From: Oxalobacteraceae bacterium
Lineage (GTDB): Bacteria > Pseudomonadota > Gammaproteobacteria > Burkholderiales > Burkholderiaceae_D
Assembly: GCA_965194545.1 (NCBI GenBank)
Contig: CBDAEJ010000003.1
Coordinates: 25,208 to 49,207, forward strand
Reading direction: 5' to 3'
Length of the DNA stretch: 24,000 nucleotides
Below the pieces are notes generated by a model that saw only the letters and a program-made list of their open reading frames with translations, was not told the origin of the DNA and did not search any database. Positions 2,672 through 17,328 of the stretch are shown here, piece by piece. Within the stretch, counting starts at the first letter, position 1, and every line of letters starts with the position of its first letter. A program made the translations under genes and the position numbers.

Positions 2672-2725
2672 CGGTACTTCCGTGCCCTCGGACGTTTCGG
2701 AGTGCGAATCATATCGCACACTACG

Positions 2726-3823
2726 TCACCGCTCATCAAAACTCAAGCTCACACGGGCGCTCAGCGCGCGCGCCTGACAGCTCAGCACAAAACCCTGCGC
2801 CATTTCATCGGCTTCCAGTGTGAAGTTCTTGTCCATGCTGACCTCGCCCTCCAGCAGCTTTGCGCGGCAGGTGCAGCACACGCCGCCTTTGCAGGCGTAG
2901 GGTAGGTCAAGCCCAGCCTCCAGCGCTGCATCGAGCAGGTGCTCGTCGGCACTGACGGCAATCTCATGGTGCTTACCATCAACTACCACAGTGAGCGCGA
3001 TATTTTTGTTTTCCGGTTTCTCTTGAGGGTATCGGTCGGTATCGGCTTGCACCTTGGCAGCGACCGTTGGGCCGGAGGTAAAGCGTTCGGCATGCACTCG
3101 GTCCGCGGGAACGCCAGCCTCGATGAGCGCGGTTTCAGTTGCAATAATCATCGCCTCCGGCCCACAGATGAATACCTCGTCCATGCTCCTGACGGGGAGT
3201 AATGCGGCGATCATGGCGCGCACCTTGTCACCATCAATCCGACCTTGCAGCAACGCGACCTCTTGCGCTTGCCGCGACAGTACATGAATCAGCGTGAGAC
3301 GGTCTGGATAGCGATCTTTGAGATCTTGTAGCGCCTCGTTGAACATGACACTCGCCATCTTGCGGTTGCCATACACGAGCGTGAATTTGCTGTTCTTTTG
3401 TTCTTCCAGGCTTGAAGCTGCAATCGATAAAATCGGTGTAATGCCCGAACCAGCTGCAAACCCAACCCGATGAATCGCATGGGGCTTTTGTATGGTGAAG
3501 CGACCATCGGGTGGCATCACCTGAATGATGTCGCCCGCGCTCAGTTGCTGTGCAGCCCAGTTCGAGAACACGCCGCCTTCCACCGGCCGGATGCCGACTT
3601 CAAGTTCGCCTTGTCGCTCTAGCCGACTGCGCTCACAACTGATTGAATAATTGCGGCGCACTTCATGGCCGTTGATCTCGGCGCGTAGCGTCAGAAACTG
3701 CCCGGGTTCGAAGCGGAAAGCTTCTCGATGTGCCTCGGGTATCTCGAATGCAATGGCCACTGAGCCTGCAGCCTCAGGCGTGACACGCTTGACTCGCAGG
3801 GGATGAAAGCGGGCAGCGGACAT
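2726..3823 (-). CDS. paaE: Ring-1,2-phenylacetyl-CoA epoxidase reductase subunit PaaE
   Basis: 365 aa. It has an FNR-like FAD/NAD module (RNYSI, GSGITP) and a C-terminal plant-type 2Fe-2S ferredoxin motif (CKGGVCCTCRAKLLEGEV). It is the last gene of the paaABCDE block. Confidence 0.92.
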   Translation of the reverse strand: MSAARFHPLRVKRVTPEAAGSVAIAFEIPEAHREAFRFEPGQFLTLRAEINGHEVRRNYSISCERSRLERQGELEVGIRPVEGGVFSNWAAQQLSAGDIIQVMPPDGRFTIQKPHAIHRVGFAAGSGITPILSIAASSLEEQKNSKFTLVYGNRKMASVMFNEALQDLKDRYPDRLTLIHVLSRQAQEVALLQGRIDGDKVRAMIAALLPVRSMDEVFICGPEAMIIATETALIEAGVPADRVHAERFTSGPTVAAKVQADTDRYPQEKPENKNIALTVVVDGKHHEIAVSADEHLLDAALEAGLDLPYACKGGVCCTCRAKLLEGEVSMDKNFTLEADEMAQGFVLSCQARALSARVSLSFDER

Positions 3824-3835
3824 AGTGGTGGTTAT

Positions 3836-4345
3836 TTAATAAGGTTTGAAATAATCAAACGGCTCACGGCAATCAAGGCAGCGGTATAGGGCCTTGCACG
3901 CGGTTGAGCCAAAACGTGCGCTTTCTATCGTATTCAGTGATGCGCATTGCGGGCACGCCACCGGCTCAGGTGAGGGCGGATTGGCAGCAAATCGCACCAC
4001 ATCCACGTCAGCCTTCACGCTATGTGGTGGCGCGATGCCGTACGCCTTCAACTTCTGCTTGCCCTCGGGGCTCATCCAGTCTGTGGTCCATGCGGGCGCG
4101 AGTTGCGTGACCACGCGAGCGTTGATCTGGTGCTCTGCTAAAGCGGCGTATATATCGTCTTCAATCTGATTCATCGCTGGGCAACCGCTATACGTGGGCG
4201 TGATAACGACTTCTAGTTGACCATCTTCGGCCTCGCGCACTGCACGCAAGATACCAAGATCGCGAAGCGTTAATACCGGAATCTCCGGGTCGCACACATG
4301 ATCGAGCAACGCCCACGCGGTGGTAATGTGGTCACCAGGTCGCAT
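3836..4345 (-). CDS. paaD: Phenylacetate-CoA oxygenase subunit PaaD (DUF59/Fe-S assembly-like)
   Basis: 169 aa. It has a DUF59-type N-terminus (VCDPEIPVLTLRDLGILR, TPTYSGCPA) and a C-terminal Cys cluster (CPQCAS..CKALYRCLDCREPFDYFKPY) typical of PaaD. It overlaps the paaC stop by 14 nt. Confidence 0.9.
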   Translation of the reverse strand: MRPGDHITTAWALLDHVCDPEIPVLTLRDLGILRAVREAEDGQLEVVITPTYSGCPAMNQIEDDIYAALAEHQINARVVTQLAPAWTTDWMSPEGKQKLKAYGIAPPHSVKADVDVVRFAANPPSPEPVACPQCASLNTIESARFGSTACKALYRCLDCREPFDYFKPY

Positions 4346-5114
4346 GCGGTAGCGTACGCGCTAAGCTTTGCATCTCAGCCAGTAAATAGCCAAGGTGCTC
4401 TGAGTGCAGACCCAGTTTTCCTTCTGTCACATAGCCACCCACGGCAGGTCGCTGGAGTGTGGCTTCCGATAGTGCCTCATCAATGATGCGATCCCAATCA
4501 TTGCGGAGCGTTGCGACATCAACGCCGATGCCGACGTCCACCGCTGCGCTTTCCATCGGGCTATGAGTCCAGAATTCTTGTGTATAGGGGAACAGATGAT
4601 CGAGCGCCGCTTGCATACGTTGGTGCGATTCATCGGTGCCATCGCCCAGCTTTACTAACCAATCTCGGCTATGCTGAAGGTGATAGCGCACTTCTTTGAC
4701 GGATTTTTCGGCGATCGCGGCCAAGGTGGTATCGCTTGATTTTTTTAGCGCTTGCCAGAGCAGCGCCATCAGCGTGCTGTACAAAAAATTACGGACTATC
4801 GTCGTCGCAAAATCCAGCTCGCCTTGTGCATAGCCGACGAGCGGACCGTGATGCGGCAACTCAAGCAGGGTGTAATTTCGAAACTCGGCACCATCACGCA
4901 GATAAGCCAGCGTATCTTCCGTTGCATCGCCACCTTGTAGCTGCGCTGCGTATTGGTATAGCAGCCGCGCTTGACCAATCAGGTCGAGCGTGATGTTCGA
5001 CATGGCAATATCTTCTTCCAGAATCGGACCATGGCCGGTCCACTCTGCATTACGCTGGCCGAGCACCAACGCGTTATCAGCGAGGTGCAGCGTGTAGTCG
5101 AGGCTGACGTGCAT
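4332..5114 (-). CDS. paaC: Ring-1,2-phenylacetyl-CoA epoxidase subunit PaaC
   Basis: 260 aa, lying between paaB and paaD. N-terminal LADNALVLGQRNAEWTGHGPILEEDIAMSNITLDLIGQARLLY is typical of PaaC. Its ATG overlaps the paaB stop. Confidence 0.9.
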   Translation of the reverse strand: MHVSLDYTLHLADNALVLGQRNAEWTGHGPILEEDIAMSNITLDLIGQARLLYQYAAQLQGGDATEDTLAYLRDGAEFRNYTLLELPHHGPLVGYAQGELDFATTIVRNFLYSTLMALLWQALKKSSDTTLAAIAEKSVKEVRYHLQHSRDWLVKLGDGTDESHQRMQAALDHLFPYTQEFWTHSPMESAAVDVGIGVDVATLRNDWDRIIDEALSEATLQRPAVGGYVTEGKLGLHSEHLGYLLAEMQSLARTLPHATW

Positions 5115-5407
5115 TACATGTGGCCGACATCACCGGGGATGTCGTAAAAGGTAGGGTGGCGATAGATTTTGTCGGCGGCCGGATCAAACAGCTCGCCTTT
5201 GTCATCCGGACTGCTGGCAACGATATCTACGGAACGTACCACCCAGATACTCACGCCTTCCTGCCGACGGGTGTACACATCACGCGCCATATGCAGCGCT
5301 TGTGAAGCATCGGCGGCGTGCAAGCTGCCACAGTGCTTGTGTTCCAGCCCCTGTTTCGAGCGCACGAAGACTTCCCATAGTGGCCACTCTTTCAGTGTGC
5401 TACTCAT
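5114..5407 (-). CDS. paaB: Ring-1,2-phenylacetyl-CoA epoxidase subunit PaaB
   Basis: 97 aa. [26 protein letters not shown]...IWVVRS..IVAS...[15 protein letters not shown] closely matches conserved PaaB sequence. There is a 4-nt overlap with paaA. Confidence 0.93.
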
Positions 5408-6426
5408 GCAGCTTCCTTCGCTTCACGTGCAGCCCGCTTACGCGCATTCGCCACTGCGGCATCGCGTACCCATTGTCCGTCACGATCGGCTTTAACACGA
5501 GTAGCGAGGCGTTCTTTGTTGCAGGGGCCATCACCATTCACGGTGCGCCAGAACTCATCCCAATCAATTGGGCCATAGTCATAATGCCCGCGCGCTTCAT
5601 TCCACTTCAGATCAGGGTCGGGCAGGGTAACGCCAAGTATCTCGGCCTGAGGCACGGTGGCATCTACGAATTTCTGGCGTAGGTCATCGTTCGAGAAACG
5701 CTTGATGCCGTAGCGCATGCCAATTGCACTATTCGGACTATCCGCATCGGGTGGACCAAACATCGCCAGGCACTTCCACCACCAACGATTCACTGCATCC
5801 TGCACCATGGCGCGCTGCTCTTCGGTACCTCGCATCATCACGAGCAGTGACTCATAGCCTTGGCGTTGATGAAACGACTCTTCTTTGCAGACGCGGATCA
5901 TGGCACGCGCATAAGGGCCATAGGAGCACCGACACAGCGGAATCTGGTTCATGATCGCCGCGCCATCTACCAGCCAGCCGATGACGCCTACATCCGCCCA
6001 GTTGAGGGTAGGGTAGTTGAAGATCGAGCTATATTTGGCGCGACCGGTATGGAGGTCGTCGAGCATCTTGTCGCGCGATACGCCCAGTGTTTCAGCGGCC
6101 GAGTACAAATACAAACCATGGCCACCTTCATCCTGTACTTTGGCGATCAGAATCGCCTTGCGCTTCAGACTTGGTGCGCGCGAGATCCAGTTACCTTCGG
6201 GCAGCATGCCAACGATTTCACTATGTGCATGTTGGCTGATCTGCCGAATAAGCGTTTTACGGTATGCCTCGGGCATCCAGTCTTGGGGCTCGATACGGCC
6301 GTCATCGGCAATCTTCTGCTCGAAGGCGGTAACCTTCTCGGCCTCGTCAACGCTGATTACCGGTACCGGCTTAGGGCCATTGGCTTTGCCTTGGCCGTCA
6401 CCGACGCTGAAGGATTGGGTATACAT
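5404..6426 (-). CDS. paaA: Ring-1,2-phenylacetyl-CoA epoxidase catalytic subunit PaaA
   Basis: 340 aa. [37 protein letters not shown]...[20 protein letters not shown]...[25 protein letters not shown]...[11 protein letters not shown] is near-identical in motif content to E. coli PaaA (di-iron EExH-type ligands). Confidence 0.95.
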
Positions 6427-6438
6427 ACAGCCTCCTGT

Positions 6439-7767
6439 TTACTGAATCTTGCGCTCGTCGATCACGCGTTTTGCTTTGCCAATCAGGGTGCGCGGAATTG
6501 TGTCGACATCCAGCAGCGTCACCGCCACGCTGATGCCCACACTGGATTTAATCCGCTGAGTCAGTGCCTGCACGACGGCATCACGCTCGCTGCCGGTAAG
6601 TGTGCCTGCATGACGCTGCAGCTCGCAGCGCACTTCCAGATTGTCCAAGGGTCCTTCGCGTGTGAGCACCAATTGGTAGGTGCCGCCTAAACGCGTGTCG
6701 AGCAGGATCTGCTCTTCAATTTGGGTCGGGAATACATTCACACCCCGGATGATCAGCATGTCATCCGAGCGTCCGGTGATCTTGCCGATACGTCGAAATG
6801 AACGCGCAGTGGGGGGTAGCAAGCGAGTGAGGTCGCGCGTGCGGAATCGAATCACCGGGAAGGCTTCTTTGGTGAGTGAGGTGAACACCAGTTCACCCTC
6901 TTGACCGTCTTCGAGTACCTCACCGGTTACGGGATCGATAATCTCGGGATAAAAATGATCTTCCCAGATCACCGGGCCATCTTTGGTCTCTACGCATTCG
7001 CTCGCGACACCAGGGCCGATTACCTCAGTCAGGCCGTATATATCCACCGCATCAATACCGAGGCGACGTTCGATCTCGGCACGCATGCCTTCGCCCCAGG
7101 GCTCGGCACCAAAAATCCCGACTCTAAGCGAGATCTCGTCTGCAGCAATACCGAGTCGTTCGAATGCTTCCGCAATCACCAGTGCGTAGGAGGGCGTGAC
7201 CATGATGCAGTCAGGACGAAAATCAATAATCTGCTGCACCTGCTTCTCGGTTTGTCCACCCGACATGGGTACCACACAACAACCCGCTTGCTCAATGCCG
7301 TAATGCGCGCCCAAGCCACCGGTAAACATGCCATAGCCATACGCGTTGTGCACCATATCGCCAGCACGCACACCCGCGGCACGTAGTGAGCGCGCGACGA
7401 CCTGCGCCCAATTCACTAAATCTTGTTTTGTGTAGCCCGCCACCACAGGTTTGCCGGTGGTGCCGGATGAGGCATGTAAGCGCGCAAGCTGCTCACGCGG
7501 TACGGCAAATAAACCAAATGGGTAGTGATCACGCAGATCGGTCTTGGTCATGAAGGGAAACTTCGCCAGATCCGACAAGGTTTTCATGTCATCGGGATGC
7601 ACGCCGACCGCAAGGCATTTGTCGCGAAATGCGTTGACATTGTCGTAGGTATGACGCAGCGTCCACTGCAGGCGTTGCAGTTGCAAGGTGGCGATCTCGT
7701 CACGGCTGGCGCGCTCGATCGGTTCGAGATTGTCAGGGGAGTACGCCATTACCATGACAGAGCCCAT
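6439..7767 (-). CDS. paaK: Phenylacetate-CoA ligase PaaK
   Basis: 442 aa. LEPIERASRDEIATLQLQRLQWTLRHTYDNV, the AMP-binding motif SSGTTGKP, and the C-terminal GKAKRVIDERK are typical of PaaK. The start may be ATG 7767, 7755 or 7749. Confidence 0.93.
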   Translation of the reverse strand: MGSVMVMAYSPDNLEPIERASRDEIATLQLQRLQWTLRHTYDNVNAFRDKCLAVGVHPDDMKTLSDLAKFPFMTKTDLRDHYPFGLFAVPREQLARLHASSGTTGKPVVAGYTKQDLVNWAQVVARSLRAAGVRAGDMVHNAYGYGMFTGGLGAHYGIEQAGCCVVPMSGGQTEKQVQQIIDFRPDCIMVTPSYALVIAEAFERLGIAADEISLRVGIFGAEPWGEGMRAEIERRLGIDAVDIYGLTEVIGPGVASECVETKDGPVIWEDHFYPEIIDPVTGEVLEDGQEGELVFTSLTKEAFPVIRFRTRDLTRLLPPTARSFRRIGKITGRSDDMLIIRGVNVFPTQIEEQILLDTRLGGTYQLVLTREGPLDNLEVRCELQRHAGTLTGSERDAVVQALTQRIKSSVGISVAVTLLDVDTIPRTLIGKAKRVIDERKIQ

Positions 7768-7808
7768 AGCTCACAAATAAACTTCTCATAGAAACACTGA
7801 CGAAATTT

Positions 7809-7844
7809 GATTCCGTCATTCGGGCGAAGCCCGGAATCCAGCAA
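7809..7844. repeat. REP-like GC hairpin unit (CGTCA-..GGGCGAAGCCC..-TCCAGCAA) in the paaI-paaK spacer
   Basis: 7814-7844 reads CGTCATTCGGGCGAAGCCCGGAATCCAGCAA. The stem is ATTC-GGGC / GCCCGGAAT around a GAA loop, with core GCGAAGC. An alternative outer pairing is GATTCCG (7809-7815) with CGGAATC (7832-7838). By my base-by-base comparison it is 25/31 identical to the unit at 16389-16419 on the opposite strand. Confidence 0.7.
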
Positions 7845-7859
7845 GCCATTAACGCTTCC

Positions 7860-8324
7860 TTACGCATGATCCGGCCCGCTAATGACTTCGCCACCAATGC
7901 GATGGCTCTTACCCCGAAACAGCGCAATTAATTTACCTTCAGCTGTACGCACCGTCACGTCGTACACGCCTGTGCGGCCGCTGGCTGAACGTTCAGTCGC
8001 TTCGGCCTGCAGTACTTCACCTTCCTTGGCCGGCGCAATGAAATCTACATGGCAAGCCGAGGCGACTGTTGTCTGGTTGTAGCTATTGCAGGCGTAGGCA
8101 AACGCGGTATCCGCCAGCGTAAAAATCATGCCGCCGTGGCAGATGTGATGACCATTCACCATATCGCTGCGTATCGGCATGCTAAGGGTGGCATGGCCCG
8201 GTGCGATGTGCTCAATACGCATCGCAAGCGCTTGTGCGGTTCGGTCACGCTCCCACATCGCGTGCGCGGTGGCGCTGGCGAGTGCTTGCGCGTCAGTCGG
8301 CAAAGTTTTTCCTGGCTCAGTCAT
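7860..8324 (-). CDS. paaI: Hydroxyphenylacetyl-CoA thioesterase PaaI (hotdog fold)
   Basis: 154 aa. ..ATLSMPIRSDMVNGHHICHGGMIFTLADTAFAYACNS.. is the PaaI/4HBT hotdog signature. There is an 8-nt overlap with the paaH stop. Confidence 0.9.
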   Translation of the reverse strand: MTEPGKTLPTDAQALASATAHAMWERDRTAQALAMRIEHIAPGHATLSMPIRSDMVNGHHICHGGMIFTLADTAFAYACNSYNQTTVASACHVDFIAPAKEGEVLQAEATERSASGRTGVYDVTVRTAEGKLIALFRGKSHRIGGEVISGPDHA

Positions 8325-9849
8325 TCAAACCACCTCCCGCATAGCAGGCTTGTTGAATGCGTGGTGAGATCCGGTAGCGATCTTCACCGTAGCTGTGTAC
8401 GAGGTTTTGTAATACGTCACGCACTGTCTCAGTACCAATCTGGGCTGCCCATGCCAAAGGTCCGCGTGGGTAATTCACGCCAAGTCGCATGGCGGAATCC
8501 ACATCGGCTGCTGAGCAGACGCCTTGGTTCACCGCATCGGCAGCTTCATTCGCTAGCATCGCTACCGTGCGCATCACAGCCAGACCGGGAACATCTTTCA
8601 TGAGCGAGACTTGCAAGCCCGCAGTCTGCAGCAATGCGATGGCGCTATCGCGCGCTGAGGGGGCACATTGCTGAGCGCAGCTGATAGCGATGCGCGAGGC
8701 ACTACCGTAGTCGAATGCGAGATCGAGCAGCACCGTATTACGCACACCGGATTCAGCTGCGCGTTGGGTTGCACTGCGGCCATCGGTGATAAATATGGCG
8801 GCATCACCGACCGTCGCGATACGTCCATCGGATGAATGAGCATCCGATACTAGCGGGGTGTTCGTGTTCGAGAGTCGCGTTGCCAGTGCGGCAGTGACCT
8901 CGCTATTGCCGTGTAGCGTCACCGCAGCGTTCAATACACGCGGCGCTTCAGTCGCTGCGACTACCTTGTCAGCACCCTCGCGGTAATCGTAAAACCCGCG
9001 TCCACTCTTGCGACCGAGGAAACCGCCCTCGAGCAGTTCTTGTTGAATCAGCGAAGGTGTAAAGCGCGTGTCATGGAAAAAAGCGGTCCACACTGAACGC
9101 GTCACGGCAAAGTTGACGTCATGTCCAATCAAATCCATCAACTCGAACGGCCCCATCCGAAATCCACCGGCTTCACGCATCACTGCATCAATGGTGGCGA
9201 CATCCGCTGCACCTTCTTGCAGCAAGCGTAGTGCCTCAGCGTAGTAGGGCCGCGCAACGCGATTCACAATGAAACCCGGTGTGGAGCGCGCGTGTACGGG
9301 TGTTTTACCCCAGGCTTTGGCGGTAGCAAACAAGGTGGCGGCGACCGCCGTATCGGTACCGATGCCGCTGACGATCTCCACCAAGGGCATCAGGGGCGCA
9401 GGGTTGAAGAAATGCAGACCCGCTAAGCGTTCCGGGCGCTTGAGTGCAGCGCCGATTGCAGTGACTGAAATCGATGAAGTATTGGTGGCGAGGATAGCCG
9501 TGTCAGAGACCAATGTTTCCAAGGCGACGAACAGCGATTGTTTCGCCGCCAGATCTTCGACAATAGCCTCGATCAGTAGTGCTGCGTGGGTCAGTTCGGG
9601 TAAGGATGTGGCAAGGCAGAGCCGCGCACTCGCTGACTGCGCTGCCTCAGGTGTGAGGCGGCCTTTGTCGGCGAGCTTCGTGAGCTGGGACTGGATGGCT
9701 TTGATTGCTGACGCTGCCGCACCATCACGTGTGTCCAGCAACAAGACCTCATGCCCGGCGAGCGCCGCGATTTGCGCAATGCCGCTGCCCATGGCACCCG
9801 CGCCGATGACGGCGACGGTGCTGCTGCTGGGTAGCGGCGTCGCGCTCAT
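8317..9849 (-). CDS. paaH: 3-hydroxyadipyl-CoA dehydrogenase PaaH (long form, 3-hydroxyacyl-CoA dehydrogenase family)
   Basis: 510 aa. It has an N-terminal Rossmann motif VAVIGAGAMGSGIAQIAALAGHEV, 3HCDH motifs (ILATNTSSISVT, HFFNPAP, GFIVNRV), and a second C-terminal 3HCDH_C-like repeat (PGLAVMRTVAMLANEA..GVNYPRGPL). Confidence 0.88.
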   Translation of the reverse strand: MSATPLPSSSTVAVIGAGAMGSGIAQIAALAGHEVLLLDTRDGAAASAIKAIQSQLTKLADKGRLTPEAAQSASARLCLATSLPELTHAALLIEAIVEDLAAKQSLFVALETLVSDTAILATNTSSISVTAIGAALKRPERLAGLHFFNPAPLMPLVEIVSGIGTDTAVAATLFATAKAWGKTPVHARSTPGFIVNRVARPYYAEALRLLQEGAADVATIDAVMREAGGFRMGPFELMDLIGHDVNFAVTRSVWTAFFHDTRFTPSLIQQELLEGGFLGRKSGRGFYDYREGADKVVAATEAPRVLNAAVTLHGNSEVTAALATRLSNTNTPLVSDAHSSDGRIATVGDAAIFITDGRSATQRAAESGVRNTVLLDLAFDYGSASRIAISCAQQCAPSARDSAIALLQTAGLQVSLMKDVPGLAVMRTVAMLANEAADAVNQGVCSAADVDSAMRLGVNYPRGPLAWAAQIGTETVRDVLQNLVHSYGEDRYRISPRIQQACYAGGGLND

Positions 9850-9852
9850 GGT

Positions 9853-11520
9853 TTAGACGTGATATCGCCGCTGCACAACAACGAAGCGGTTGGCGACGTA
9901 CGCTGCATCGGTATACGAAGCATTAGCCGCCGGGTTTGCGCCGGTGCCATGGAAATCCGAGAACGCTGCCGACTGATTGACGAAGACGCCACCGGTCAGA
10001 TTGATCGATAGCGCCACCTTGGCGTTCAAGGTCGCCTGCGTCATCGCATCAATCACCTCGTCGTGTGTGGAGTAGACACCTACCGTCAAAGCACCTTGGG
10101 TATTCACCAAGTGCTCCGAGCGCTTGATGGAGGCTGCAGTATCGGGCGTTTTGACGATAAAGCTGATTGGTCCGAAGCATTCATGGCCATACGCAGCCTC
10201 ATCGCTGGCATCGCACGCAATCAACGCGGGCGTATGTACCTGCGCATGCGGGAACTCGGGGTTATCCAGCTTGTTGGATGCCAGCACGACTTTACCGAGC
10301 TTGCCGCTGTTGGCTTGGGCGATACGTTGTACGGTATCTGGTGAGCGAATCGCACCGAGAATCGCCAGTGCTACTTCTGGCTTGGCGAGGAAGTGGCTGA
10401 CTGCATTGCCCAGATCCGAGCAGAATTCGTCATACGACTTGTGTCCTTCGTCGGTATCAATACCCCCCGCCGGTACGAACAAAGCCTGCGAGGTGGTACA
10501 CATCTGCCCGGAGTACAGCGACAGCGTGAAGGCCAGATTACCCAGCATACGCTTGTAGCTGTCGGTGGAATCAACCACGATGTTATTGACACCAGCCAGC
10601 TCGGCATACACATGGGCTTGTCGGCAATGATCGATGAGCCACTGCCCAAACGCATTGCTACCCGTGAAATCAATCGACTTCACTGCCGGGTGCGTCACCA
10701 AGTGCTGTGTTGCCTCGCGCTTGTCGGTAACGCAGAGGCTGACCAGATTAGGGTCAATACCGTTCTCTGCTAGCACCGCGCGTACGGTTCGTACCGTCAT
10801 CGCTACCGGCAGTATCGCGACTTCATGCGGCTTGATGATCACCGCATTACCCGTTGCGAGCGCCGCGAATAATCCGGGATAGGTATTCCAGGTCGGGAAG
10901 GTGCTGCAACCGACCACCACAGACACGCCACGGCCGACGATCTCGAAATGCTTCTTCATCACTAGCGGTGGGTTCTTGCCTTGCGGCTTTTCCCAAACCG
11001 CTTCGCTTGGCACAAAACTTTGCTCGCGCCAGGCGTAGGCGACTGCTTCCAGACCACGGTCTTGCGCGTGCGGTGAGCCCGCCTGAAACGCCATCATCCA
11101 ACCTTGGCCCGAGGTGAGCATCACCGCATGCGCTAATTCGAAACTTTGTTTGTTGAGACGATCAAGAATCTCGAGGCAAATACCGGTGCGGCCTTCGGCA
11201 CCGATTTTTTGCCAGGCCGGCATCGCAGCCTGCGCCGCTTGTATTAAGGCATCCGGATCGCATACGGGGTAGGACACATTTAGCGCTGTGCCATAGGGGG
11301 ATGTCTCTTGGTCATACCAACCGCCCAAGCCCGGCTGATCAATCTCGAAGCGTTTACCCAGCAACTGGTCGAACGCCGCTTTGCCGGCCACATCCGAGCC
11401 TTCGCCGTAATTGCGCGGACTGGGGTGCTCTCCGTAGGCTGACCAGTACTGGCGGGTGTGGATGGCTTGCAGGGCGCCGTCGAGTGTGGCGCGGTGTTTG
11501 TCGAGCAGGGGGTGCGACAT
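9853..11520 (-). CDS. paaN: Phenylacetic acid degradation aldehyde dehydrogenase PaaN (ALDH-only type, no fused MaoC hydratase domain)
   Basis: ALDH superfamily motifs are present (IDFTGSNAFG, catalytic-Cys context YSGQMCTTSQALFVP). It is the first gene of the paa operon. I prefer the ATG at 11520 (MSHPLLDKH..), which is preceded by GGGAGA 7 nt upstream. The longest ORF extends to 11586. Confidence 0.85.
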   Translation of the reverse strand: MSHPLLDKHRATLDGALQAIHTRQYWSAYGEHPSPRNYGEGSDVAGKAAFDQLLGKRFEIDQPGLGGWYDQETSPYGTALNVSYPVCDPDALIQAAQAAMPAWQKIGAEGRTGICLEILDRLNKQSFELAHAVMLTSGQGWMMAFQAGSPHAQDRGLEAVAYAWREQSFVPSEAVWEKPQGKNPPLVMKKHFEIVGRGVSVVVGCSTFPTWNTYPGLFAALATGNAVIIKPHEVAILPVAMTVRTVRAVLAENGIDPNLVSLCVTDKREATQHLVTHPAVKSIDFTGSNAFGQWLIDHCRQAHVYAELAGVNNIVVDSTDSYKRMLGNLAFTLSLYSGQMCTTSQALFVPAGGIDTDEGHKSYDEFCSDLGNAVSHFLAKPEVALAILGAIRSPDTVQRIAQANSGKLGKVVLASNKLDNPEFPHAQVHTPALIACDASDEAAYGHECFGPISFIVKTPDTAASIKRSEHLVNTQGALTVGVYSTHDEVIDAMTQATLNAKVALSINLTGGVFVNQSAAFSDFHGTGANPAANASYTDAAYVANRFVVVQRRYHV

Positions 11521-11633
11521 CGGTGTTTCTCCCGGTGGCATTGAGGCGAACGTGGGGCGAGCAGCTAGCGCTGACCCTGATAGCACCGATTACGATACCG
11601 CAAAATCAAATCTCCGGCAACTTCAGGTATCAA

Positions 11634-12007: not shown

Positions 12008-13324
12008 GTGAGCCCTCAACAGCCGACTACCGACGCGGCCGCAGTGTCCGACGATGCGCTGCGCGATGTGGTGTACCGCAAGGCGATGCTGCGCTTTATG
12101 CCCTTGCTGTGTTTGTGCCTGGTCGCAGCCTATCTGGATCGGGTGAATGTCGGCTTCGCCAAGCTGACCATGCTCGATGATCTGGGGTTCAGTAATACCG
12201 TCTTTGGTCTTGGTGCCGGCGTGTTCTTTTTGGGGTACTTCTTGTTCGAGGTACCGAGTAACGCACTGCTGCATCGCATTGGCGCACGTGCCTGGATTGC
12301 CCGCATCATGATCACCTGGGGCGTGATTGGGGCGCTCATGCCTTTCGTACAAACACCGACCCAGTTTTACATTCTGCGTTTCTTGCTGGGTGTGGCCGAG
12401 GCGGGCTTTAGTCCCGGTGCGATGTACTTTATCGCTTGCTGGTTCCCGTCTGACCGGCGCGGCCGCATGCTGGCGCTTTACTTGACTGCGGTACCGTTAT
12501 CGAGCGTCATCGGCGGCCCCTTGTCGGGCTACATTCTCGCGGCTTTTGCGGATGTCGGCGGCTGGCATGGTTGGCAGTGGTTGTTCTTGATCGAGACCAT
12601 CCCCTCGATTGTGCTGGGCTTCGTCGTACTGAAAGTGCTGATTGACCGCCCTGCTGATGCACCCTGGCTGAGTGAACAAGAGGCCGCTCTGATTACAGCT
12701 GACTTGGCGCGCGAGGCAGAACGGAATCAAGAATACACAGGATTTTTCAGTGCGCTGCGCAGCAAGTTGGTATGGCAGCTCAGCATTGCCTACTTCTGCA
12801 TCGTTAGCGCGGTGTATGTGCTGATTTTCTGGTTGCCGACGCTGATCAAGCAGCATGGAATCAGCGACCCGGTACAGATCGGCTGGTTAACGGCGGTCCC
12901 GTACTTCTGTGCCATCGTTGCCTCGCTCCTCAATAATGCGCATGCTGACCGTCACCGTGAGCGTCGCTGGCATACCGCTCTACCGTGTATCGTGACAGCG
13001 ATTGGTATGGCCGTCAGCTGGGTACACTTTGATAGCTTATTGCTCACCATGTTGGTGCTGAGTGTTACTGCCGCAGCGGCTTCAACCACGCAGGCAGCTT
13101 TCTGGAGCGTACCGCCGACTTTCTTGAGTGGCGCTGCTGCTGCCGCTGGTTTGGCATTGATCAACTCGATCGGCAATATTGGTGGCATGGTCAGCACGTC
13201 GCTGGTGGGTTGGATCACTGACCTCACTGGCAACTCGCAAAACAGCTTGATTCTGTTTGCCGGTATCTTGTTGGTGAGCGTGGTGTTGGTGGTGAGGTTG
13301 CCTGCGCATTTGGTCGACAGGTAA
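12008..13324 (+). CDS. MFS transporter, anion:cation symporter (ACS)-like family (possible aromatic/organic acid permease)
   Basis: 438 aa and about 12 TM. YRKAMLRFMPLLCLCLVAAYLDRVNVGFAKLTMLDDLGFS...FLGYFLFEVPSN...FLLGVAEAGFSPG is typical of the ACS-family N-terminal half (DRxNxxxA motif). The start is uncertain: GTG 12008 or GTG 12044. Confidence 0.85.
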   Translation: MSPQQPTTDAAAVSDDALRDVVYRKAMLRFMPLLCLCLVAAYLDRVNVGFAKLTMLDDLGFSNTVFGLGAGVFFLGYFLFEVPSNALLHRIGARAWIARIMITWGVIGALMPFVQTPTQFYILRFLLGVAEAGFSPGAMYFIACWFPSDRRGRMLALYLTAVPLSSVIGGPLSGYILAAFADVGGWHGWQWLFLIETIPSIVLGFVVLKVLIDRPADAPWLSEQEAALITADLAREAERNQEYTGFFSALRSKLVWQLSIAYFCIVSAVYVLIFWLPTLIKQHGISDPVQIGWLTAVPYFCAIVASLLNNAHADRHRERRWHTALPCIVTAIGMAVSWVHFDSLLLTMLVLSVTAAAASTTQAAFWSVPPTFLSGAAAAAGLALINSIGNIGGMVSTSLVGWITDLTGNSQNSLILFAGILLVSVVLVVRLPAHLVDR

Positions 13325-13329
13325 GCAGG

Positions 13330-13725
13330 ATGCGGCTCCTGATTGTGTATGACGGCGCTTGTCCGTTTTGCAGTGCATACACCGGTTTGCTGCAGCTACG
13401 TGAGCAAATGTACGTTGAGCTCCTCAGTGCGCGCAGCGATGATGCGCGGATTGATGGATTTCGGGCAGCGGGCTACCGTTTGGACGAGGGCATGCTGCTG
13501 CAAATGAATGGTGAGGTATATGCGGGTGCTGAAGCCATGCACCGTCTGGCAATACTGTCGACACGCGGTGGCTTGCTAAACCGTTTACAGCGTTTTGTGT
13601 TTGCCCGTCGCTGGTTGGCGCATGCGCTTTATCCTTGGCTGCGAGTAGGGCGTCGTCTCGCGCTCTATGTGCGGCGAGTGCCCTTGATTGACGGGCCGGG
13701 CCCACTAGCCGAAAAGAAGCCCTAG
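13330..13725 (+). CDS. DCC1-like thiol-disulfide oxidoreductase (DUF393 family)
   Basis: 131 aa. N-terminal LIVYDGACPFCSAY carries the YDGxCxxC motif that defines DUF393/DCC proteins. The gene starts 5 nt after the MFS stop. Confidence 0.75.
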   Translation: MRLLIVYDGACPFCSAYTGLLQLREQMYVELLSARSDDARIDGFRAAGYRLDEGMLLQMNGEVYAGAEAMHRLAILSTRGGLLNRLQRFVFARRWLAHALYPWLRVGRRLALYVRRVPLIDGPGPLAEKKP

Positions 13726-13727
13726 AG

Positions 13728-13967
13728 ATGTTCCTGCGCGCGCTGTTGCCTTTGCTAGTGGTCATGCTCAGTGCTTGCACGAGCACTAGCAGCGGCCCGG
13801 ATGGCGAGACGCGCTATCGGTACAGCACTTTTGATTTTTCTGGAAAATCTTGGGTGGCGCAAAAGCAGCACTGTGAGACGCTGGGTATGAAGCCGAAACA
13901 TCTGGAGACCGTCTGCGGTTTTTTGCTATGCACCAGTCGCTATGCTTGTGAGCCCAAGACTCAGTAG
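13728..13967 (+). CDS. Small Cys-rich lipoprotein (79-aa precursor), unknown function
   Basis: A signal peptide ends in the lipobox: MFLRALLPLLVVMLSAC (L-S-A-C). The mature 62 aa contain 4 further Cys (positions 49, 63, 68, 73 of the precursor). The ATG is 2 nt after the DCC stop, with a purine-rich GAAAAGAAG upstream. Confidence 0.6.
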   Translation: MFLRALLPLLVVMLSACTSTSSGPDGETRYRYSTFDFSGKSWVAQKQHCETLGMKPKHLETVCGFLLCTSRYACEPKTQ

Positions 13968-14034
13968 CACGTAAGCACTTAATAGCAACAATGCGCTTAC
14001 CGAATCAAATGTTTTGAGGGCATCGAAGCCTCGC

Positions 14035-14826
14035 TCACCACAAGCGTGCGCAATAAATCATTGCCGGAAAACTCACTAGCCACGCCCACACGAAGCGGTT
14101 GAGACCGAAGAAGGCAAATACCAGCAAATGAAATACCAGCGCGATAGCGCAGAACACAAATGCAAATAGCGGACCCAAAAACACCATCGGTACCGCACAT
14201 TCCCAAAGAATAAAACCCCACGAGCAAGCGATAGCTACGAATCGGTGGCGAAACACGCTATCCGCTGCGAGCGGGCCATAGATGCCGCCATCGAGAAAAT
14301 AGGGCAGTGCGATGCCATTGCGCCACTCGCGTGAAAACAGCTTGATTGTCCCCGAGATGAAATAAGAGGTCATTGTTTGCAGGCAGACGTAACCGAGTCC
14401 TGCTTGCCAAGCGAGCACGGGGCTGACAAAGAATTGCCCCCAGTGCGCGATCATCAAGCCGGTAAGGGCGATGATGGTCATGAAATCACTGCCACCATTG
14501 AAAGCGCCCCGCCAGCGGATCAGGATGATGACCGTACTGAAAAAAAGTAGCGTGGCACTGACAATGCTGCTACCCCAATACAAACTGGCCGCTGCAGCAA
14601 GGCGTAGTAGCAGATGTGTTTTGTGGATGTGTTCGCTGAACAACCAATCAAAGGCCTTGCGTACTGCTATTGAGGCATGCGCTAGATCGCCGCGTTGAAT
14701 AGTCCAACTCCACAGCGCATCGGGTTGCTGTGTTGAGCGGATGCGCAAAAACTCCAGCGTCTGGATCAGCAAGCTGGTCGCCAGCAGGCACTCGAAGCTA
14801 CGCAAGGCGATATAGAGCGGCGGCAT
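14035..14826 (-). CDS. HTTM-domain (vitamin K-dependent gamma-carboxylase-like / SdpB-like) integral membrane protein
   Basis: 263 aa, multi-pass. SYFISGTIKLFSREWRNG matches the HTTM signature as I recall it from human GGCX (VYFIAGVKKLDADWVEG). RWRGAFNGGSDFMTIIALTGL and FFGLNRFVWAW also fit bacterial HTTM proteins. Its ATG is 1 nt from the stop of the upstream 171-aa gene. Confidence 0.7.
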   Translation of the reverse strand: MPPLYIALRSFECLLATSLLIQTLEFLRIRSTQQPDALWSWTIQRGDLAHASIAVRKAFDWLFSEHIHKTHLLLRLAAAASLYWGSSIVSATLLFFSTVIILIRWRGAFNGGSDFMTIIALTGLMIAHWGQFFVSPVLAWQAGLGYVCLQTMTSYFISGTIKLFSREWRNGIALPYFLDGGIYGPLAADSVFRHRFVAIACSWGFILWECAVPMVFLGPLFAFVFCAIALVFHLLVFAFFGLNRFVWAWLVSFPAMIYCARLW

Positions 14827-14827
14827 C

Positions 14828-15343
14828 TCAGGCCTGCAATTCTGGTGAGACGAGTATGGTCATCGATTCACTTGGTGTCTCTAGCGGTGGCACTTGCATG
14901 ATCTGAAATTGCCACCGACAGCCACTCACACCCTGTTGCTGTAGCAGGCTACGCGCCAGCCGCATGACCATGTGGTAGCTAACGAGGTCGCTTGCTGACT
15001 TTTCATCGGGCAGCGTTTGAATGTCAAATGCGAGATGGTCGATCAGGTTTTGGTTGGCAAGGAGCAGATTGTTTCGCGCGTTATGAAACAGATCGCGTGG
15101 CGAGAATAGTGCGCGTGGCATGAACATCTGCCACTCACTCCATGACCCGTCTGCTTGCTGGGTGCGAAGAAACAGCCTTGGTTGTGAGCCGAACCCATGG
15201 TAAAAGCGCCAATTCGGAAAGAAGCTGCGAAGCAGATACCACCATGGCCCCGAGACTTCGCGACCACGCAGAATCAGGCTGCCGAACACGAAAGCGAAGT
15301 AGGCGGCAATCAGTATGAGAGTGAGGGTGGAGGTCGAGGTCAC
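14828..15343 (-). CDS. Single-pass membrane protein, possible SdpA-like partner of the HTTM protein
   Basis: 171 aa with one N-terminal TM (LTLILIAAYFAFVFGSLIL) followed by a soluble domain. SFFPNWRFYHGF weakly resembles the P-Q-x-W-x-F-F motif I associate with SdpA-family proteins. It is translationally coupled to the HTTM gene. The GTG start has no clear SD. Confidence 0.5.
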   Translation of the reverse strand: MTSTSTLTLILIAAYFAFVFGSLILRGREVSGPWWYLLRSFFPNWRFYHGFGSQPRLFLRTQQADGSWSEWQMFMPRALFSPRDLFHNARNNLLLANQNLIDHLAFDIQTLPDEKSASDLVSYHMVMRLARSLLQQQGVSGCRWQFQIMQVPPLETPSESMTILVSPELQA

Positions 15344-15493: not shown

Positions 15494-16321
15494 GTGACGG
15501 TCAACGCGCTTTATTCATGTGTATCCAGCCCATGCAGCAATACGCAAAACAATCAGATCATCAGCAGGTCCGTCTTGGCTGAGACACGCGACACTACTGG
15601 CGGTTTGCGCTGGCATTTGCGCGCACTGTGGCGCCGCCGTCAGTGGCACGAGACTACGCGGCAAATCGCTGAATGGCTTGATACCACCCAGCCTGCATCG
15701 CGCCATTTATTGCTGATCGGCGGCAGCGCGGGTTGGATGATGTCTGGACGCTGGCTACAGCGATTCTCGCGCATTGATCTGATCGACCTTGATCCGTTTG
15801 CGTATCGCCTGTTTAGTTGGAATCACGGACGTGCTTTGCGCGAATCTGGCACCGAGTTGCACTACGCTTCGATCGATGCGCTCGCGAATTTGGATGCGCT
15901 TTTACGAAAGCACCCGGATGCGACACTCTTTTTCGACAATGTCTTAGGTCAGCATTTGTTCCGGATATGGCAGATTGAGCGTGCTGAAGCCGATCTGGCC
16001 CGCACTGCCCAACAGCTGAAGGGTCGCGACTGGGGTAGTGTGCATGACTTGTTCTCAGGGCCGACCGACCCGCTCAAGGTACCCGTCTCAGCAGTCACGC
16101 AATTCGATGCCGTACGCGACGCGAATGGGCTTCTGGCAGACGGCTTGCGCGGAACGCCGCTTCACCTGCGGCTGCTGGCACAGGTGGGTGGTCAGCCAGA
16201 GTGGGTGGATCATCTGACCTCTGAGCTGTTCCCCGTGGGTACGACTAGTCGCCTGATTGCCTGGCCGTTCGTGCCGGACTATGCACACTGGCTACAGGCA
16301 GGATGGGTGTCAGGCAGGTAG
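15494..16321 (+). CDS. Hypothetical protein with Rossmann-like (methyltransferase-like?) motifs
   Basis: 275-aa ORF with coding-like composition and no competing long ORF. HLLLIGGSAGW...RIDLIDLDP...LFFDNVLGQ loosely resembles class-I SAM-MTase motifs I, II and IV. The N-terminal 30 aa look non-native, so the true start may be downstream (for example TTG 15575). Confidence 0.55.
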   Translation: MTVNALYSCVSSPCSNTQNNQIISRSVLAETRDTTGGLRWHLRALWRRRQWHETTRQIAEWLDTTQPASRHLLLIGGSAGWMMSGRWLQRFSRIDLIDLDPFAYRLFSWNHGRALRESGTELHYASIDALANLDALLRKHPDATLFFDNVLGQHLFRIWQIERAEADLARTAQQLKGRDWGSVHDLFSGPTDPLKVPVSAVTQFDAVRDANGLLADGLRGTPLHLRLLAQVGGQPEWVDHLTSELFPVGTTSRLIAWPFVPDYAHWLQAGWVSGR

Positions 16322-16521: not shown

Positions 16522-17328
16522 ATGAAACATCTCGCCTTGCCCCTATTCGTTGCTGTTTCGCTGGCGGCACCTGCGCTGGCGAAAGACCCCGCGCCAGCGG
16601 CCCCGGCTCGTCCGCCATCCCCCGGCGCCAAGCATTCACCACGCGCGCCACTATGGAGCTACGACGGTGAGACTGGTCCCACGAAATGGAGCGAGCTGGA
16701 CCCGAAGTTTCGTCTCTGCCAATCCGGCAAGCGGCAGTCACCGATCGATATCGAGACCCAGACGGTGGAGCGTGGTGGTCTTAAGCCGATCATGTTCAAC
16801 TATGCCGCTGGTCCGCTCACGCTGGTGAACGGGAACAACACGATTCAGGTGAATTTCACGACCAGTGGTGGCGCGCGTCTGGACGGTCTGGAGTACAAGC
16901 TGGTGCAGATGGTGTTTCATGCACCGAGTGAAGAGAAGATTGATGGTATCGCCACGCCGATCTCAGCGCAGTTGATTCATCGTGCGGGTGATACGCGTAC
17001 CGCCGTGGTGGCGATTCGCTTCAAGCTGGGCAAAGAGAACAAAGCCCTGAAACCAATCTTCGAGCGACTGCCCAAGACCGACGCCTTCAATGAGACGGTC
17101 GAGAGCTTTAACCCTTCGGATATCTTGCCCGCCAATCCTGCTTACTTTACGTATATGGGTTCACTCACGACACCGCCTTGTACCGAGGACGTGAAGTGGT
17201 TTGTGATGCGCCAGACGGTGGATATTTCCTTCCGTCAGTTGGCTGCGTTTAAGGAGCGTTACAAGTCGAACTCAAGGCCTTCACAGCCGGTCAATGGGCG
17301 GCGCGTGCAGGAGTATGTCGAGGAATAA
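16522..17328 (+). CDS. Secreted alpha-class carbonic anhydrase homolog (apparently degenerate metal site)
   Basis: There is a signal peptide (MKHLALPLFVAVSLAAPALA|KD). Alpha-CA hallmarks are present: WSYDGETGPTKWSEL, FRLCQSGKRQSPIDI, FHAPSEE, YMGSLTTPPCTEDVKWFV, NSRPSQPVNGRRV. The canonical QFHFHxPSE reads QMVFHAPSE here. Confidence 0.85.
   Translation: MKHLALPLFVAVSLAAPALAKDPAPAAPARPPSPGAKHSPRAPLWSYDGETGPTKWSELDPKFRLCQSGKRQSPIDIETQTVERGGLKPIMFNYAAGPLTLVNGNNTIQVNFTTSGGARLDGLEYKLVQMVFHAPSEEKIDGIATPISAQLIHRAGDTRTAVVAIRFKLGKENKALKPIFERLPKTDAFNETVESFNPSDILPANPAYFTYMGSLTTPPCTEDVKWFVMRQTVDISFRQLAAFKERYKSNSRPSQPVNGRRVQEYVEE

Follow-up and report, generated by a model that had tools for sequence, protein, structure and literature searches.

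A group of four small genes in the 24,000-nt stretch of Oxalobacteraceae DNA analysed here (the window) raises the question of what its two membrane proteins act upon. In a preliminary description of the locus the four genes were read as a Gram-negative, envelope-located counterpart of the SdpAB/SdpC system, in which a multi-pass HTTM protein, its single-TM partner and a DCC-family CxxC protein would oxidise, modify or export a small Cys-rich lipoprotein encoded beside them. The comparisons reported below lead us to lean towards another explanation, namely that what is conserved here is a membrane enzyme with two subunits, of the type of the human vitamin K-dependent carboxylase (GGCX/HTTM), with a DCC redox partner and a substrate from outside the locus.

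Gene arrangement at the locus

The ORF read of the window found the four genes packed at 13330-15343 (Table 1), with the coordinates and spacing that the preliminary description had given. The DCC gene, whose product carries the motif YDGACPFCS, starts after a gap of 5 nt from the stop codon of an MFS permease gene at 13324, and the ORF of the 79-aa prelipoprotein follows the DCC stop codon after 2 nt. On the opposite strand, the stop codon of the 171-aa protein and the ATG of the 263-aa protein are 1 nt apart. Because the DCC gene and the 171-aa/263-aa gene pair are convergent, they are not co-transcribed. In a promoter and terminator scan of the locus the number of sites did not exceed that of shuffled sequence, and the convergent gap (13968-14034) yielded no terminator.

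Table 1. Features of the locus and the adjoining permease gene
Feature	Coordinates	Strand	Remarks
MFS permease, 438 aa, HpaX/aromatic-acid type	12008..13324	+	MFS_1 E 8e-53; context only
DCC-family thiol-disulfide oxidoreductase, 131 aa	13330..13725	+	PF04134 match; YDGACPFCS
Prelipoprotein, 79 aa	13728..13967	+	LSAC lipobox, Cys17; between DCC and HTTM genes
Predicted minimal HTTM-fold catalytic subunit, 263 aa, GGCX/SdpB-related	14035..14826	-	fold and relatives
Putative accessory subunit, 171 aa, N-terminal TM helix and ~145-aa domain	14828..15343	-	remote DUF5819-superfamily

The permease gene is the first of the + strand string MFS-DCC-lipoprotein, and the match of its product to TIGR02332 (HpaX), 288 bits, is under the family cutoff. 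It is preceded by paa genes and probably belongs with this upstream paa cluster. In the genomes surveyed (see below) an MFS homolog was found beside the 171-aa/263-aa pair in two loci only (L001 and L002), and a weak match (21%) was located about 5 kb off in L006. Asp/Asn beta-hydroxylase and carbonic anhydrase were considered as functional partners and set aside, since their presence as neighbours is limited to Oxalobacteraceae synteny; they were treated as context.

Homology of the 263-aa and the 171-aa proteins

The 263-aa protein had been assigned to the HTTM proteins from its sequence. A direct match was absent: the window protein hit no Pfam family at E<=1, PF05090 included, and no NCBIfam family, including TIGR04033 (SdpB). 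The assignment could nevertheless be sustained through the relatives of the protein, its fold and its pocket residues. PF05090 was matched weakly by just 5 of 30 close relatives, and by 42 of 58 diverged relatives, which belong to the same family and share 30-47% identity with the window protein (best E 4.9e-10). Judged by E value, TIGR04033 was matched by 38 of the 58 (best E 7.5e-11). Relatives encoded on plasmids are either annotated as HTTM or score as HTTM. At 50% identity the whole family divides into 2415 clusters, and almost all of its proteins are about 260 aa long.

The AF2 model of the 263-aa protein (pLDDT 89.4) is multi-pass, as had been described. In a Foldseek search of the PDB with this model the top 12 matches were GGCX chains, with probability 1.00 and TMq between 0.49 and 0.61; the next match had a TM of about 0.2, leaving GGCX as the sole significant one. 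Profile searches of the PDB sequences with the 263-aa and 171-aa proteins did not find GGCX, and the fold search and hhalign were therefore needed to establish the link. The profile of the 263-aa family aligned with human GGCX at E 6.3e-5 (the human sequence used was checked at 10 published positions), and the alignment paired K162 with Lys218, W168 with Trp223 and F245 with Phe299. These three GGCX residues are functionally important, and the HTTM pocket of GGCX binds a quinone. K162, W168 and F245 are invariant across the 58 diverged members, as are R104, N110 and D114. The likeness between SYFISGTIKLFSREWRNG and the HTTM signature YFIAGVKKLDADWVEG, to which attention had been drawn previously, was upheld and is more than chance, for hhalign aligns exactly that stretch and both K162 and W168 are invariant. 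Judged from its relatives and its modelled fold, the 263-aa protein is a divergent member of the HTTM/SdpB superfamily. It consists of the HTTM core alone, its chain having no clamp domain at the C-terminus, and none of its cysteines is conserved among the 58 diverged members. The Glu-binding residues of GGCX (N159, H160 and Y395) were not aligned by hhalign, whose alignment leaves out both the N-terminal half and the region around Y395, and carboxylation of Glu by the module is therefore unlikely.

For the 171-aa protein the AF2 model (pLDDT 78) shows one N-terminal helix, residues 4-25, in agreement with the single TM segment noted before. Its family has the invariant motifs FFPNWRF and HNxxNNLxLAxQNL, and the window protein gave no direct match in Pfam or NCBIfam. 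The likeness to SdpA that had been suggested for it was not found: PF17418 and TIGR04034 were left unmatched by the window protein, by 34 members of the family, by the consensuses and by the actinobacterial relatives (E up to 1-10). A remote relationship to DUF5819 emerged instead. The window protein, the 34 members and the family consensus did not match PF19136 (DUF5819) directly. With hhalign, the family matched the HTTM-adjacent partner proteins of actinobacteria (probability 98%, E 2e-13); the consensus of these partners reached 30.0 bits with PF19136 (cutoff 27.1), and all six partners tested matched this model individually (E 4e-5 to 0.013). The S. atratus partner homologs carry no precomputed Pfam label, and DUF5819 was seen upon rescanning the homologs and the consensus. 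The 171-aa protein also has the traits of DUF5819 proteins, that is, an N-terminal TM helix, a domain of about 150 aa and an adjoining HTTM gene. By way of these intermediates, sequence comparison places the 171-aa family in the DUF5819 superfamily as a remote member. The 171-aa model had no fold match in the PDB, and tblastn of the protein against plasmids gave no match. It was also considered whether the partner could be a detached C-terminal piece of GGCX, an idea that found no support at the sequence level, as hhalign detected no similarity between the 171-aa family and GGCX residues 346-625.

Conservation of the pair and of its neighbours

In a survey of 80 genome loci the 171-aa gene adjoined the HTTM gene on its upstream side in all 77 that could be evaluated, the other three lying at contig ends. 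The two genes are a strictly conserved, translationally coupled pair. Roughly 540 genomes carry the pair, which was also encountered in Paroceanicella, Rhodococcus, Streptomyces and a haloarchaeon. The flanks across the 80 loci are heterogeneous housekeeping genes, and no third gene was found to be conserved beside the pair in these proteobacterial loci, be it a small ORF, a precursor, a protease, a transporter, an immunity gene or a small Cys-rich lipoprotein. The substrate of the module is probably encoded outside the locus.

These findings bear on the possibility that the pair tailors a RiPP or toxin peptide encoded elsewhere, by carboxylation or another modification. Such a role is suggested by distant relatives: in S. 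atratus and W1SF4, LanB/LanC is the neighbour of a cassette of HTTM-like, alpha-beta hydrolase and DUF5819-like genes, the cassette of W1SF4, like that of GBA 94-10, is flanked by small ORFs that are candidate precursors, and in Haloplanus the pair is near SagB/ThcOx and an ATP-grasp enzyme. It would also fit the matches of 38 of the 58 members to the SdpB model (see above) and the activity of MloH, which carboxylates a peptide-like intermediate. However, the cluster-embedded relatives are just ~28% identical to the window protein, and the 80 proteobacterial loci are devoid of a conserved precursor, protease, transporter or immunity gene. Taken together, such a function is unlikely for the module in the window.

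The 131-aa protein was confirmed as a DCC protein by PF04134 (40.7 bits, cutoff 27.8; E 6.4e-10). The homology calls of the preliminary description were thus largely right, those of the DCC and HTTM proteins having stood and the SdpA likeness having fallen; in the HMM checks against Pfam/TIGRFAM that it had proposed, PF04134 was the model matched directly, whereas the 263-aa window protein did not reach PF05090 or SdpB, nor the 171-aa protein SdpA. The DCC sequence contains D8-G-A-C11-P-F-C14 (DxxCxxC) and no signal peptide. Its homologs are the direct convergent neighbours of the HTTM gene in 22 of the 80 loci (~29% when reckoned on about 75 loci), in Burkholderiales and Hyphomicrobiales (Beta- and Alphaproteobacteria) with otherwise unrelated flanks, and DxxCxxC is kept in 22/22 of them; L089 and L090 likewise have a DCC gene. 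The tie between DCC and the pair that had been proposed therefore extends over two proteobacterial classes, and DCC is an optional third component, about 70% of the loci having no adjacent DCC gene.

This linkage, like the occasional fusion of DCC to HTTM proteins, would also be expected if the module were a quinone-linked thiol redox relay with a DsbB/VKOR- or DoxX-like role, in which the HTTM protein would bind a quinone, as the HTTM pocket of GGCX does, and exchange electrons with the redox CxxC of DCC, C-H activation playing no part. DsbB and VKOR require cysteine pairs in the membrane protein, but no cysteine is invariant in the 58 HTTM members. The residues that are invariant are those of the GGCX catalytic pocket, including the CO2-stacking Phe, and the obligatory component is the 171-aa partner, not the often missing DCC. 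A pure redox relay is on these grounds distinctly improbable.

The topology of the proteins was deduced from their charges. The HTTM proteins carry on average 12.2 K+R on the loops of the K162 side vs 0.36 on the other side, and in the 171-aa proteins the TM helix is preceded by a mean of 0.09 and followed by a mean of 3.2 K+R. By the positive-inside rule, which is a statistical predictor, this bias and the absent signal peptide of DCC predict that the K162 side, the 171-aa domain and DCC are all cytoplasmic, which makes the envelope location assumed in the preliminary description unlikely. Against this orientation stands that the luminal loops of human GGCX itself are basic.

The 79-aa ORF contains MFLRALLPLLVVMLSAC, the signal peptide of a predicted lipoprotein with a lipobox of the type [LVI][ASTVI][GAS]C. 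As stated in the preliminary description, the lipobox is LSAC and the mature part has four cysteines; the lipobox cysteine is Cys17, and the four further ones are at 49, 63, 68 and 74. Homologs with 48-64% identity keep all four of them and a lipobox (LAGC or ACGC among them), and by this conservation the ORF is a real gene, which belongs to no Pfam or NCBIfam family. The lipoprotein gene was found in 3/80 HTTM loci, more than 70 loci having the pair without it. It is intact in L086 and L088, which have no pair, and in L091 it stands beside a decayed pair, a fused remnant. The loci that have the lipoprotein are without exception Oxalobacteraceae-like, with a local synteny in common (P275, carbonic anhydrase). 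The order DCC-lipoprotein-HTTM-partner recurs in L089 and L090 at 57-66% identity, and in L005 the lipoprotein gene abuts the HTTM gene. The co-occurrence of all four genes is consequently not a conserved feature across the 80 loci, an outcome that the preliminary description had itself named as speaking against its model; the lipoprotein is a lineage-specific neighbour outside the conserved module and probably not its substrate. An envelope machine acting on the lipoprotein in the manner of SdpAB on SdpC, in spite of the four invariant cysteines of a real gene, the recurrent gene order, the need of SDP toxin production for SdpAB and the distant pair relatives in RiPP-like clusters, is highly improbable, considering the rarity of the lipoprotein and its persistence without an intact pair, the predicted cytoplasmic position of the catalytic side and of DCC, the failure to find SdpA or SdpC similarity and the absence from the 58 HTTM members of a conserved Cys that could relay disulfides; the maturation model thus went unsupported.

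Proposed mechanism and comparison with known systems

Taking into account that the pair is conserved, that DCC is often joined to it and that the lipoprotein is rare, the core of the locus is a split version of a DUF5819 + HTTM-DCC module. The preliminary description knew of no characterised example of its combination in proteobacteria, but a DUF5819 protein beside an HTTM-DCC fusion already appears in a 2026 preprint. There, the DUF5819 protein and the HTTM-DCC1 fusion of Melghirimyces thermohalophilus (A0A1G6IAS5 / A0A1G6IBF2) are combined in an AlphaFold 3 complex, from which a GGCX-like system of bacteria was predicted; the predicted complex resembles GGCX and MloH, a region of MloH corresponds structurally to DUF5819, some Firmicutes have DCC and HTTM fused, and Lys189, Trp195 and Phe273 are the residues reported for the HTTM-DCC protein (bioRxiv 10.64898/2026.08.19.745780).

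The Melghirimyces system, itself only predicted, has the same three components as the locus in the window, with the gene of a small single-TM protein beside the HTTM gene and a DCC domain in addition. The spacing K(+6)W, K(+83/84)F is common to both (K189/W195/F273 vs K162/W168/F245), and the 171-aa family is tied to DUF5819 through the intermediates described above. In contrast, DCC is here a separate convergent gene, found in ~29% of the loci, the HTTM protein has nothing beyond its 263-aa core, neither window protein reaches the Pfam thresholds, and the hosts are Proteobacteria of the ubiquinone type, where Melghirimyces is a Firmicute of the menaquinone type.

In the two-subunit enzyme that we favour, the 263-aa protein would be the minimal HTTM catalytic subunit, with K162 (GGCX K218) as the quinol-activating lysine, W168 as its neighbouring tryptophan and F245 as the phenylalanine of the CO2 pocket. 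The 171-aa protein would contribute a further TM helix and a domain serving as clamp or facing the substrate, both of which GGCX and MloH have within one polypeptide, a clamp role being predicted for it after the DUF5819 model of the preprint. The CxxC of DCC may act as a thiol-dependent redox partner regenerating the quinol, a VKOR-like role. Quinol and O2 would give rise to a base strong enough to remove a C-H proton from the substrate, probably with carboxylation as the next step, and the reaction would take place at the inner membrane, on its cytoplasmic side. The homology, the fold, the conserved residues, the strict pairing and the partial linkage of DCC are observed, and the complex, its cofactor, chemistry and orientation and the part played by DCC are proposals built on them.

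The host lineages (Oxalobacteraceae, Comamonadaceae) are ubiquinone-only by chemotaxonomy. Menaquinol, which serves GGCX and MloH, therefore could not be the cofactor. A more specific form of the two-subunit enzyme, which we put forward as quite unlikely, would have the pair run a ubiquinol-based, vitamin-K-like oxygenation/epoxide cycle in menaquinone-free bacteria, with DCC as the recycling reductase, and carboxylate or C-H activate a non-clustered housekeeping substrate (for instance a lipid, cofactor or unlinked protein) at the cytoplasmic face. If true, this would be a menaquinone- and VKOR-independent enzyme system of the GGCX type, widespread in freshwater Proteobacteria.

Human GGCX shares with the 263-aa protein the HTTM fold (Foldseek probability 1.0, TMq ~0.6) and the three pocket residues. 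It differs in its size (758 aa), its single chain including additional TM helices and a clamp domain on the luminal side, in its Glu-binding residues, which were not recovered in the 263-aa protein, and in facing the ER lumen, whereas the module studied here is predicted to face the cytoplasm and has no apparent propeptide-bearing substrate. MloH, which serves malonomycin biosynthesis in Streptomyces as a vitamin K-dependent carboxylase, belongs to the bacterial HTTM enzymes and acts on a cytoplasmic substrate; unlike in the window, where there are two genes and no cluster, its two parts are fused and it lies inside a biosynthetic cluster. In B. subtilis, SdpA/SdpB and YitP/YitO are needed to make the toxins SDP and YIT from SdpC and YitM. 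There, too, the gene of a small protein is directly upstream of a multi-pass HTTM-type gene, and many relatives of the 263-aa protein match the SdpB model (see above), but the window protein does not reach it, the 171-aa family is without SdpA similarity, and neither an SdpC-like precursor nor immunity genes are present.

We know of no bacterial HTTM protein with a known function other than MloH and the genetically defined SdpAB. The family described here would represent a minimal GGCX machinery, reduced to a catalytic core with an obligatory single-TM partner, to which a DCC may be added, in lineages without vitamin K2. It offers a compact system for asking which chemistry the HTTM fold had ancestrally, what DCC proteins do and whether the orientation of GGCX was inverted on transfer to eukaryotes. 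The curated HTTM, SdpB and DUF5819 models miss many members of this large family, that of the window included, and the 263-aa and 171-aa hypothetical proteins can now be named as an HTTM-type / DUF5819-like pair.

The 263-aa protein and its 171-aa partner

The four ORFs of the preliminary description were all present and arranged exactly as it had claimed.

Location of the features in the window and in homologous loci
Feature	Location	Strand	Remark
Phenylacetate catabolism (paa) cluster	1664-11586	-	
HpaX-like MFS permease	12008-13324	+	divergent from paa cluster
DCC gene, 131 aa	13330-13725	+	starts 5 nt past MFS stop
79-aa prelipoprotein gene	13728-13967	+	starts 2 nt past DCC stop
263-aa multi-pass protein gene	14035-14826	-	
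171-aa single-TM protein gene	14828-15343	-	stop 1 nt from 263-aa ATG
275-aa conserved protein gene	15494-16321	+	divergent from 171-aa gene
Alpha-type (eukaryotic-type) carbonic anhydrase	16522-17328	+	with signal peptide
Asp/Asn beta-hydroxylase (LpxO-like) gene	L006:6420-7376	-	
Asp/Asn beta-hydroxylase (LpxO-like) gene	L088:4347-5264		
Decayed 171-aa/263-aa pair remnant	L091:2175-2669	-	motifs of both genes
Archaeal partner and HTTM-like pair	L094 (Haloplanus sp. GDY1 plasmid):3136-4546		overlapping genes

No Pfam or NCBIfam model matched the 263-aa protein at E<=1, which formally counts against its proposed HTTM/SdpB identity, but its family, its fold and the alignment with human vitamin K-dependent carboxylase (GGCX) speak for it. 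Judged by sequence similarity, the protein is a member of a large and tightly conserved family: a word-indexed search gave 1072 matches and an exhaustive search 2415 cluster representatives at E<=1e-3, nearly all of about 260 aa. Of 58 diverged members, which share 27-47% identity with the window protein, 42 matched the HTTM model PF05090 (best E 4.9e-10) and 38 the SdpB model TIGR04033 (best E 7.5e-11). The top PDB matches of the AlphaFold model (pLDDT 89.4) were twelve human GGCX chains (probability 1.00, TMq ~0.6), all other matches having TM ~0.2. In hhalign the family profile aligned with human GGCX (a sequence in agreement with ten published positions) with E 6.3e-5, residues 141-263 pairing with GGCX 194-317. 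Model matches of the diverged relatives, predicted fold and profile alignment together tie the family to the HTTM superfamily. The alignment places K162, W168 and F245, invariant among the 58 sequences, on GGCX K218, W223 and F299, which are the lysine adjoining the vitamin K hydroxyl, a tryptophan needed for activity and the phenylalanine stacking on CO2, respectively (PMC12647623). Thus, the motif resemblance to GGCX noted earlier was correct and meaningful. The Glu-binding residues N159, H160 and Y395 of GGCX were not recovered in this alignment; the 263-aa protein is the HTTM core only.

The suggested SdpA likeness of the 171-aa protein was not borne out: neither the SdpA models (PF17418, TIGR04034) nor the DUF5819 model was matched by the window protein, 34 family members or the family consensus. 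A PDB fold search with its AF2 model (pLDDT 78) gave no match, and hhalign of the family against the C-terminal region of GGCX found no similarity. When annotated plasmids were searched with the 263-aa protein (tblastn), HTTM-like genes were found in Paroceanicella, Rhodococcus, Streptomyces and Haloplanus, each adjoining, or sharing a cassette with, a gene for a small protein. The 171-aa family profile detected these small partners and left control neighbours undetected; hhalign against the HTTM-adjacent actinobacterial partners gave a probability of 98% (E 2e-13, 133 columns). The actinobacterial partner consensus matched PF19136 (DUF5819) with 30.0 bits (cutoff 27.1), as did all six individual partners (E 4e-5 to 0.013). 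By way of these intermediates, sequence comparison identifies the 171-aa protein as a remote member of the DUF5819 superfamily, not detectably SdpA-like.

Gene neighbourhood

The preliminary description had postulated a four-gene module with the lipoprotein as its substrate. In 80 genome loci of the 263-aa gene (freshwater Burkholderiales, Hyphomicrobiales, Rhodospirillales) the four genes showed no conserved co-occurrence. The 171-aa gene immediately preceded the 263-aa gene, in the same orientation, in 77, and the remaining three loci were cut at the contig end; DCC was the direct convergent neighbour in 22 of ~75 evaluable loci; and the lipoprotein was found in 3/80, two of them near-identical to the window. 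No other conserved gene or small ORF accompanied the 263-aa gene in the 80 loci, and the flanks of the pair were heterogeneous (DUF945, aminotransferase, M23 peptidase, TctC, LpxO-like hydroxylase, EamA). Both Burkholderiales and Hyphomicrobiales are represented among the DCC-adjacent loci, whose flanks are otherwise unrelated, and all 22 adjacent DCC proteins retain DxxCxxC and have no signal peptide. The window DCC protein (motif DGACPFC, no signal peptide) matched PF04134 above threshold (E 6.4e-10, 40.7 bits, cutoff 27.8), confirming its identity.

The prelipoprotein has a lipobox, LSAC (Cys17), and four more cysteines (49, 63, 68, 74). A search starting from it found eight metagenome loci; L084 and L085 match the window, and L089 and L090 have the complete four-gene arrangement (57-66% identity). 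The lipoprotein gene stands without any of the others in L086, is present in L088, where the pair is absent and downstream synteny is kept, and lies intact in L091 next to what is left of the pair, a fused remnant with "SLFPNWRF" of the partner and "NRFF...AIIYCATLLW" of the HTTM C-terminus. The partner N-terminal and HTTM C-terminal motifs are ~250 bp apart, a sequence pattern that indicates a recent internal deletion in one lineage. These three loci and the 3/80 count show that lipoprotein and pair occur independently and that their adjacency is local Oxalobacteraceae synteny, which speaks against the substrate model. Because of the short gaps behind the MFS gene, the DCC and lipoprotein genes look co-transcribed with this catabolic transporter.

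The paa cluster encodes a PaaA/C-type oxygenase subunit, an AMP-binding ligase, a 4HBT thioesterase, a 3-hydroxyacyl-CoA dehydrogenase and a 577-aa aldehyde dehydrogenase. The gene of the 275-aa protein, which had no Pfam or NCBIfam match, shows synteny in 23 loci and persists in L088 and L091 despite loss of the pair. Synteny of the carbonic anhydrase gene with the pair was seen in 23 loci of Oxalobacteraceae, an association limited to that one lineage; the enzyme, predicted to be periplasmic, is a curious neighbour for a putative CO2-using GGCX-like enzyme. An Asp/Asn beta-hydroxylase gene (LpxO-like, PF05118), absent from the window, adjoins the 171-aa gene divergently in 16 loci (L006 and 15 others). 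ASPH and GGCX act on the same clotting factors in animals, and membrane lipids are hydroxylated by bacterial homologs of LpxO/OlsC; the hydroxylase gene could hint at a lipid substrate or reflect no more than synteny. Four MAG records titled 'uncultured Bifidobacterium sp.' look taxonomically mislabelled, L001 being 97% identical and L006, L009 and L019 clearly syntenic to Oxalobacteraceae loci.

Topology and proposed activity

In the 58-sequence alignment the K162-side loops carry on average 12.2 K+R, versus 0.36 in the opposite-side loops, and the 171-aa family has 0.09 K+R ahead of the TM helix and 3.2 behind it. With this charge bias, and with DCC proteins devoid of signal peptides, the positive-inside rule predicts that the functional parts of all three proteins are cytoplasmic, which argues against the envelope location proposed before and against action on an exported lipoprotein. 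The equivalent GGCX loops, which are luminal, are likewise basic; speculatively, this may be the vestige of a change in orientation that followed horizontal transfer.

The best-supported interpretation of the pair is a two-subunit GGCX-type membrane enzyme. Working at the cytoplasmic face, it would use a substrate whose gene lies elsewhere, with quinol and O2 driving base generation and then, probably, carboxylation, and it would have DCC as an optional partner for redox recycling. In chemotaxonomy the host lineages count as ubiquinone-only, and if they are, the cofactor would have to be other than menaquinol. The homology calls of the preliminary description largely stand, whereas its SdpA call, envelope location and lipoprotein-substrate model do not.

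Comparison with related systems

SdpAB resembles the window pair in gene order, and SdpB resembles the 263-aa protein at the superfamily level; SdpA and SdpC show no likeness to the module. A closer counterpart is described in a 2026 preprint: the gene of a DUF5819 protein, consisting of an N-terminal TM helix and the DUF5819 domain, adjoins that of a 447-aa HTTM-DCC1 fusion, and their complex, as predicted by AlphaFold 3, is similar to whole GGCX and to the bacterial carboxylase MloH, DUF5819 taking the place of the clamp and the quinone being enclosed by Lys189, Trp195 and Phe273 (10.64898/2026.08.19.745780). The window module shares with it the three parts and the K/W/F spacing, but its DCC is a separate, convergent gene, its HTTM protein is cut down to the core, and its 171-aa and 263-aa proteins have diverged below model thresholds. 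The module is a split form of this known type of system.

Distant relatives of the pair are located in RiPP-like clusters of Streptomyces and Haloplanus, which makes peptide tailoring a plausible activity for the superfamily. A cassette of HTTM-like, alpha/beta hydrolase and DUF5819-like genes recurs in S. atratus (plasmid, L082), Streptomyces sp. GBA 94-10 (pGBA1, L092) and Streptomyces sp. W1SF4 (p1, L093). LanB/LanC lie beside it in L082 and L093, 60-66-aa candidate precursor ORFs accompany it in L092 and L093, and pGBA1 has a single 601-aa protein combining the HTTM-like and hydrolase parts; the cassette looks like an undescribed RiPP tailoring step. Near the archaeal pair are ATP-grasp, amidase, M28 peptidase, methyltransferase and SagB/ThcOx dehydrogenase genes. 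Unlike these cluster-embedded relatives, the proteobacterial pair is an orphan.
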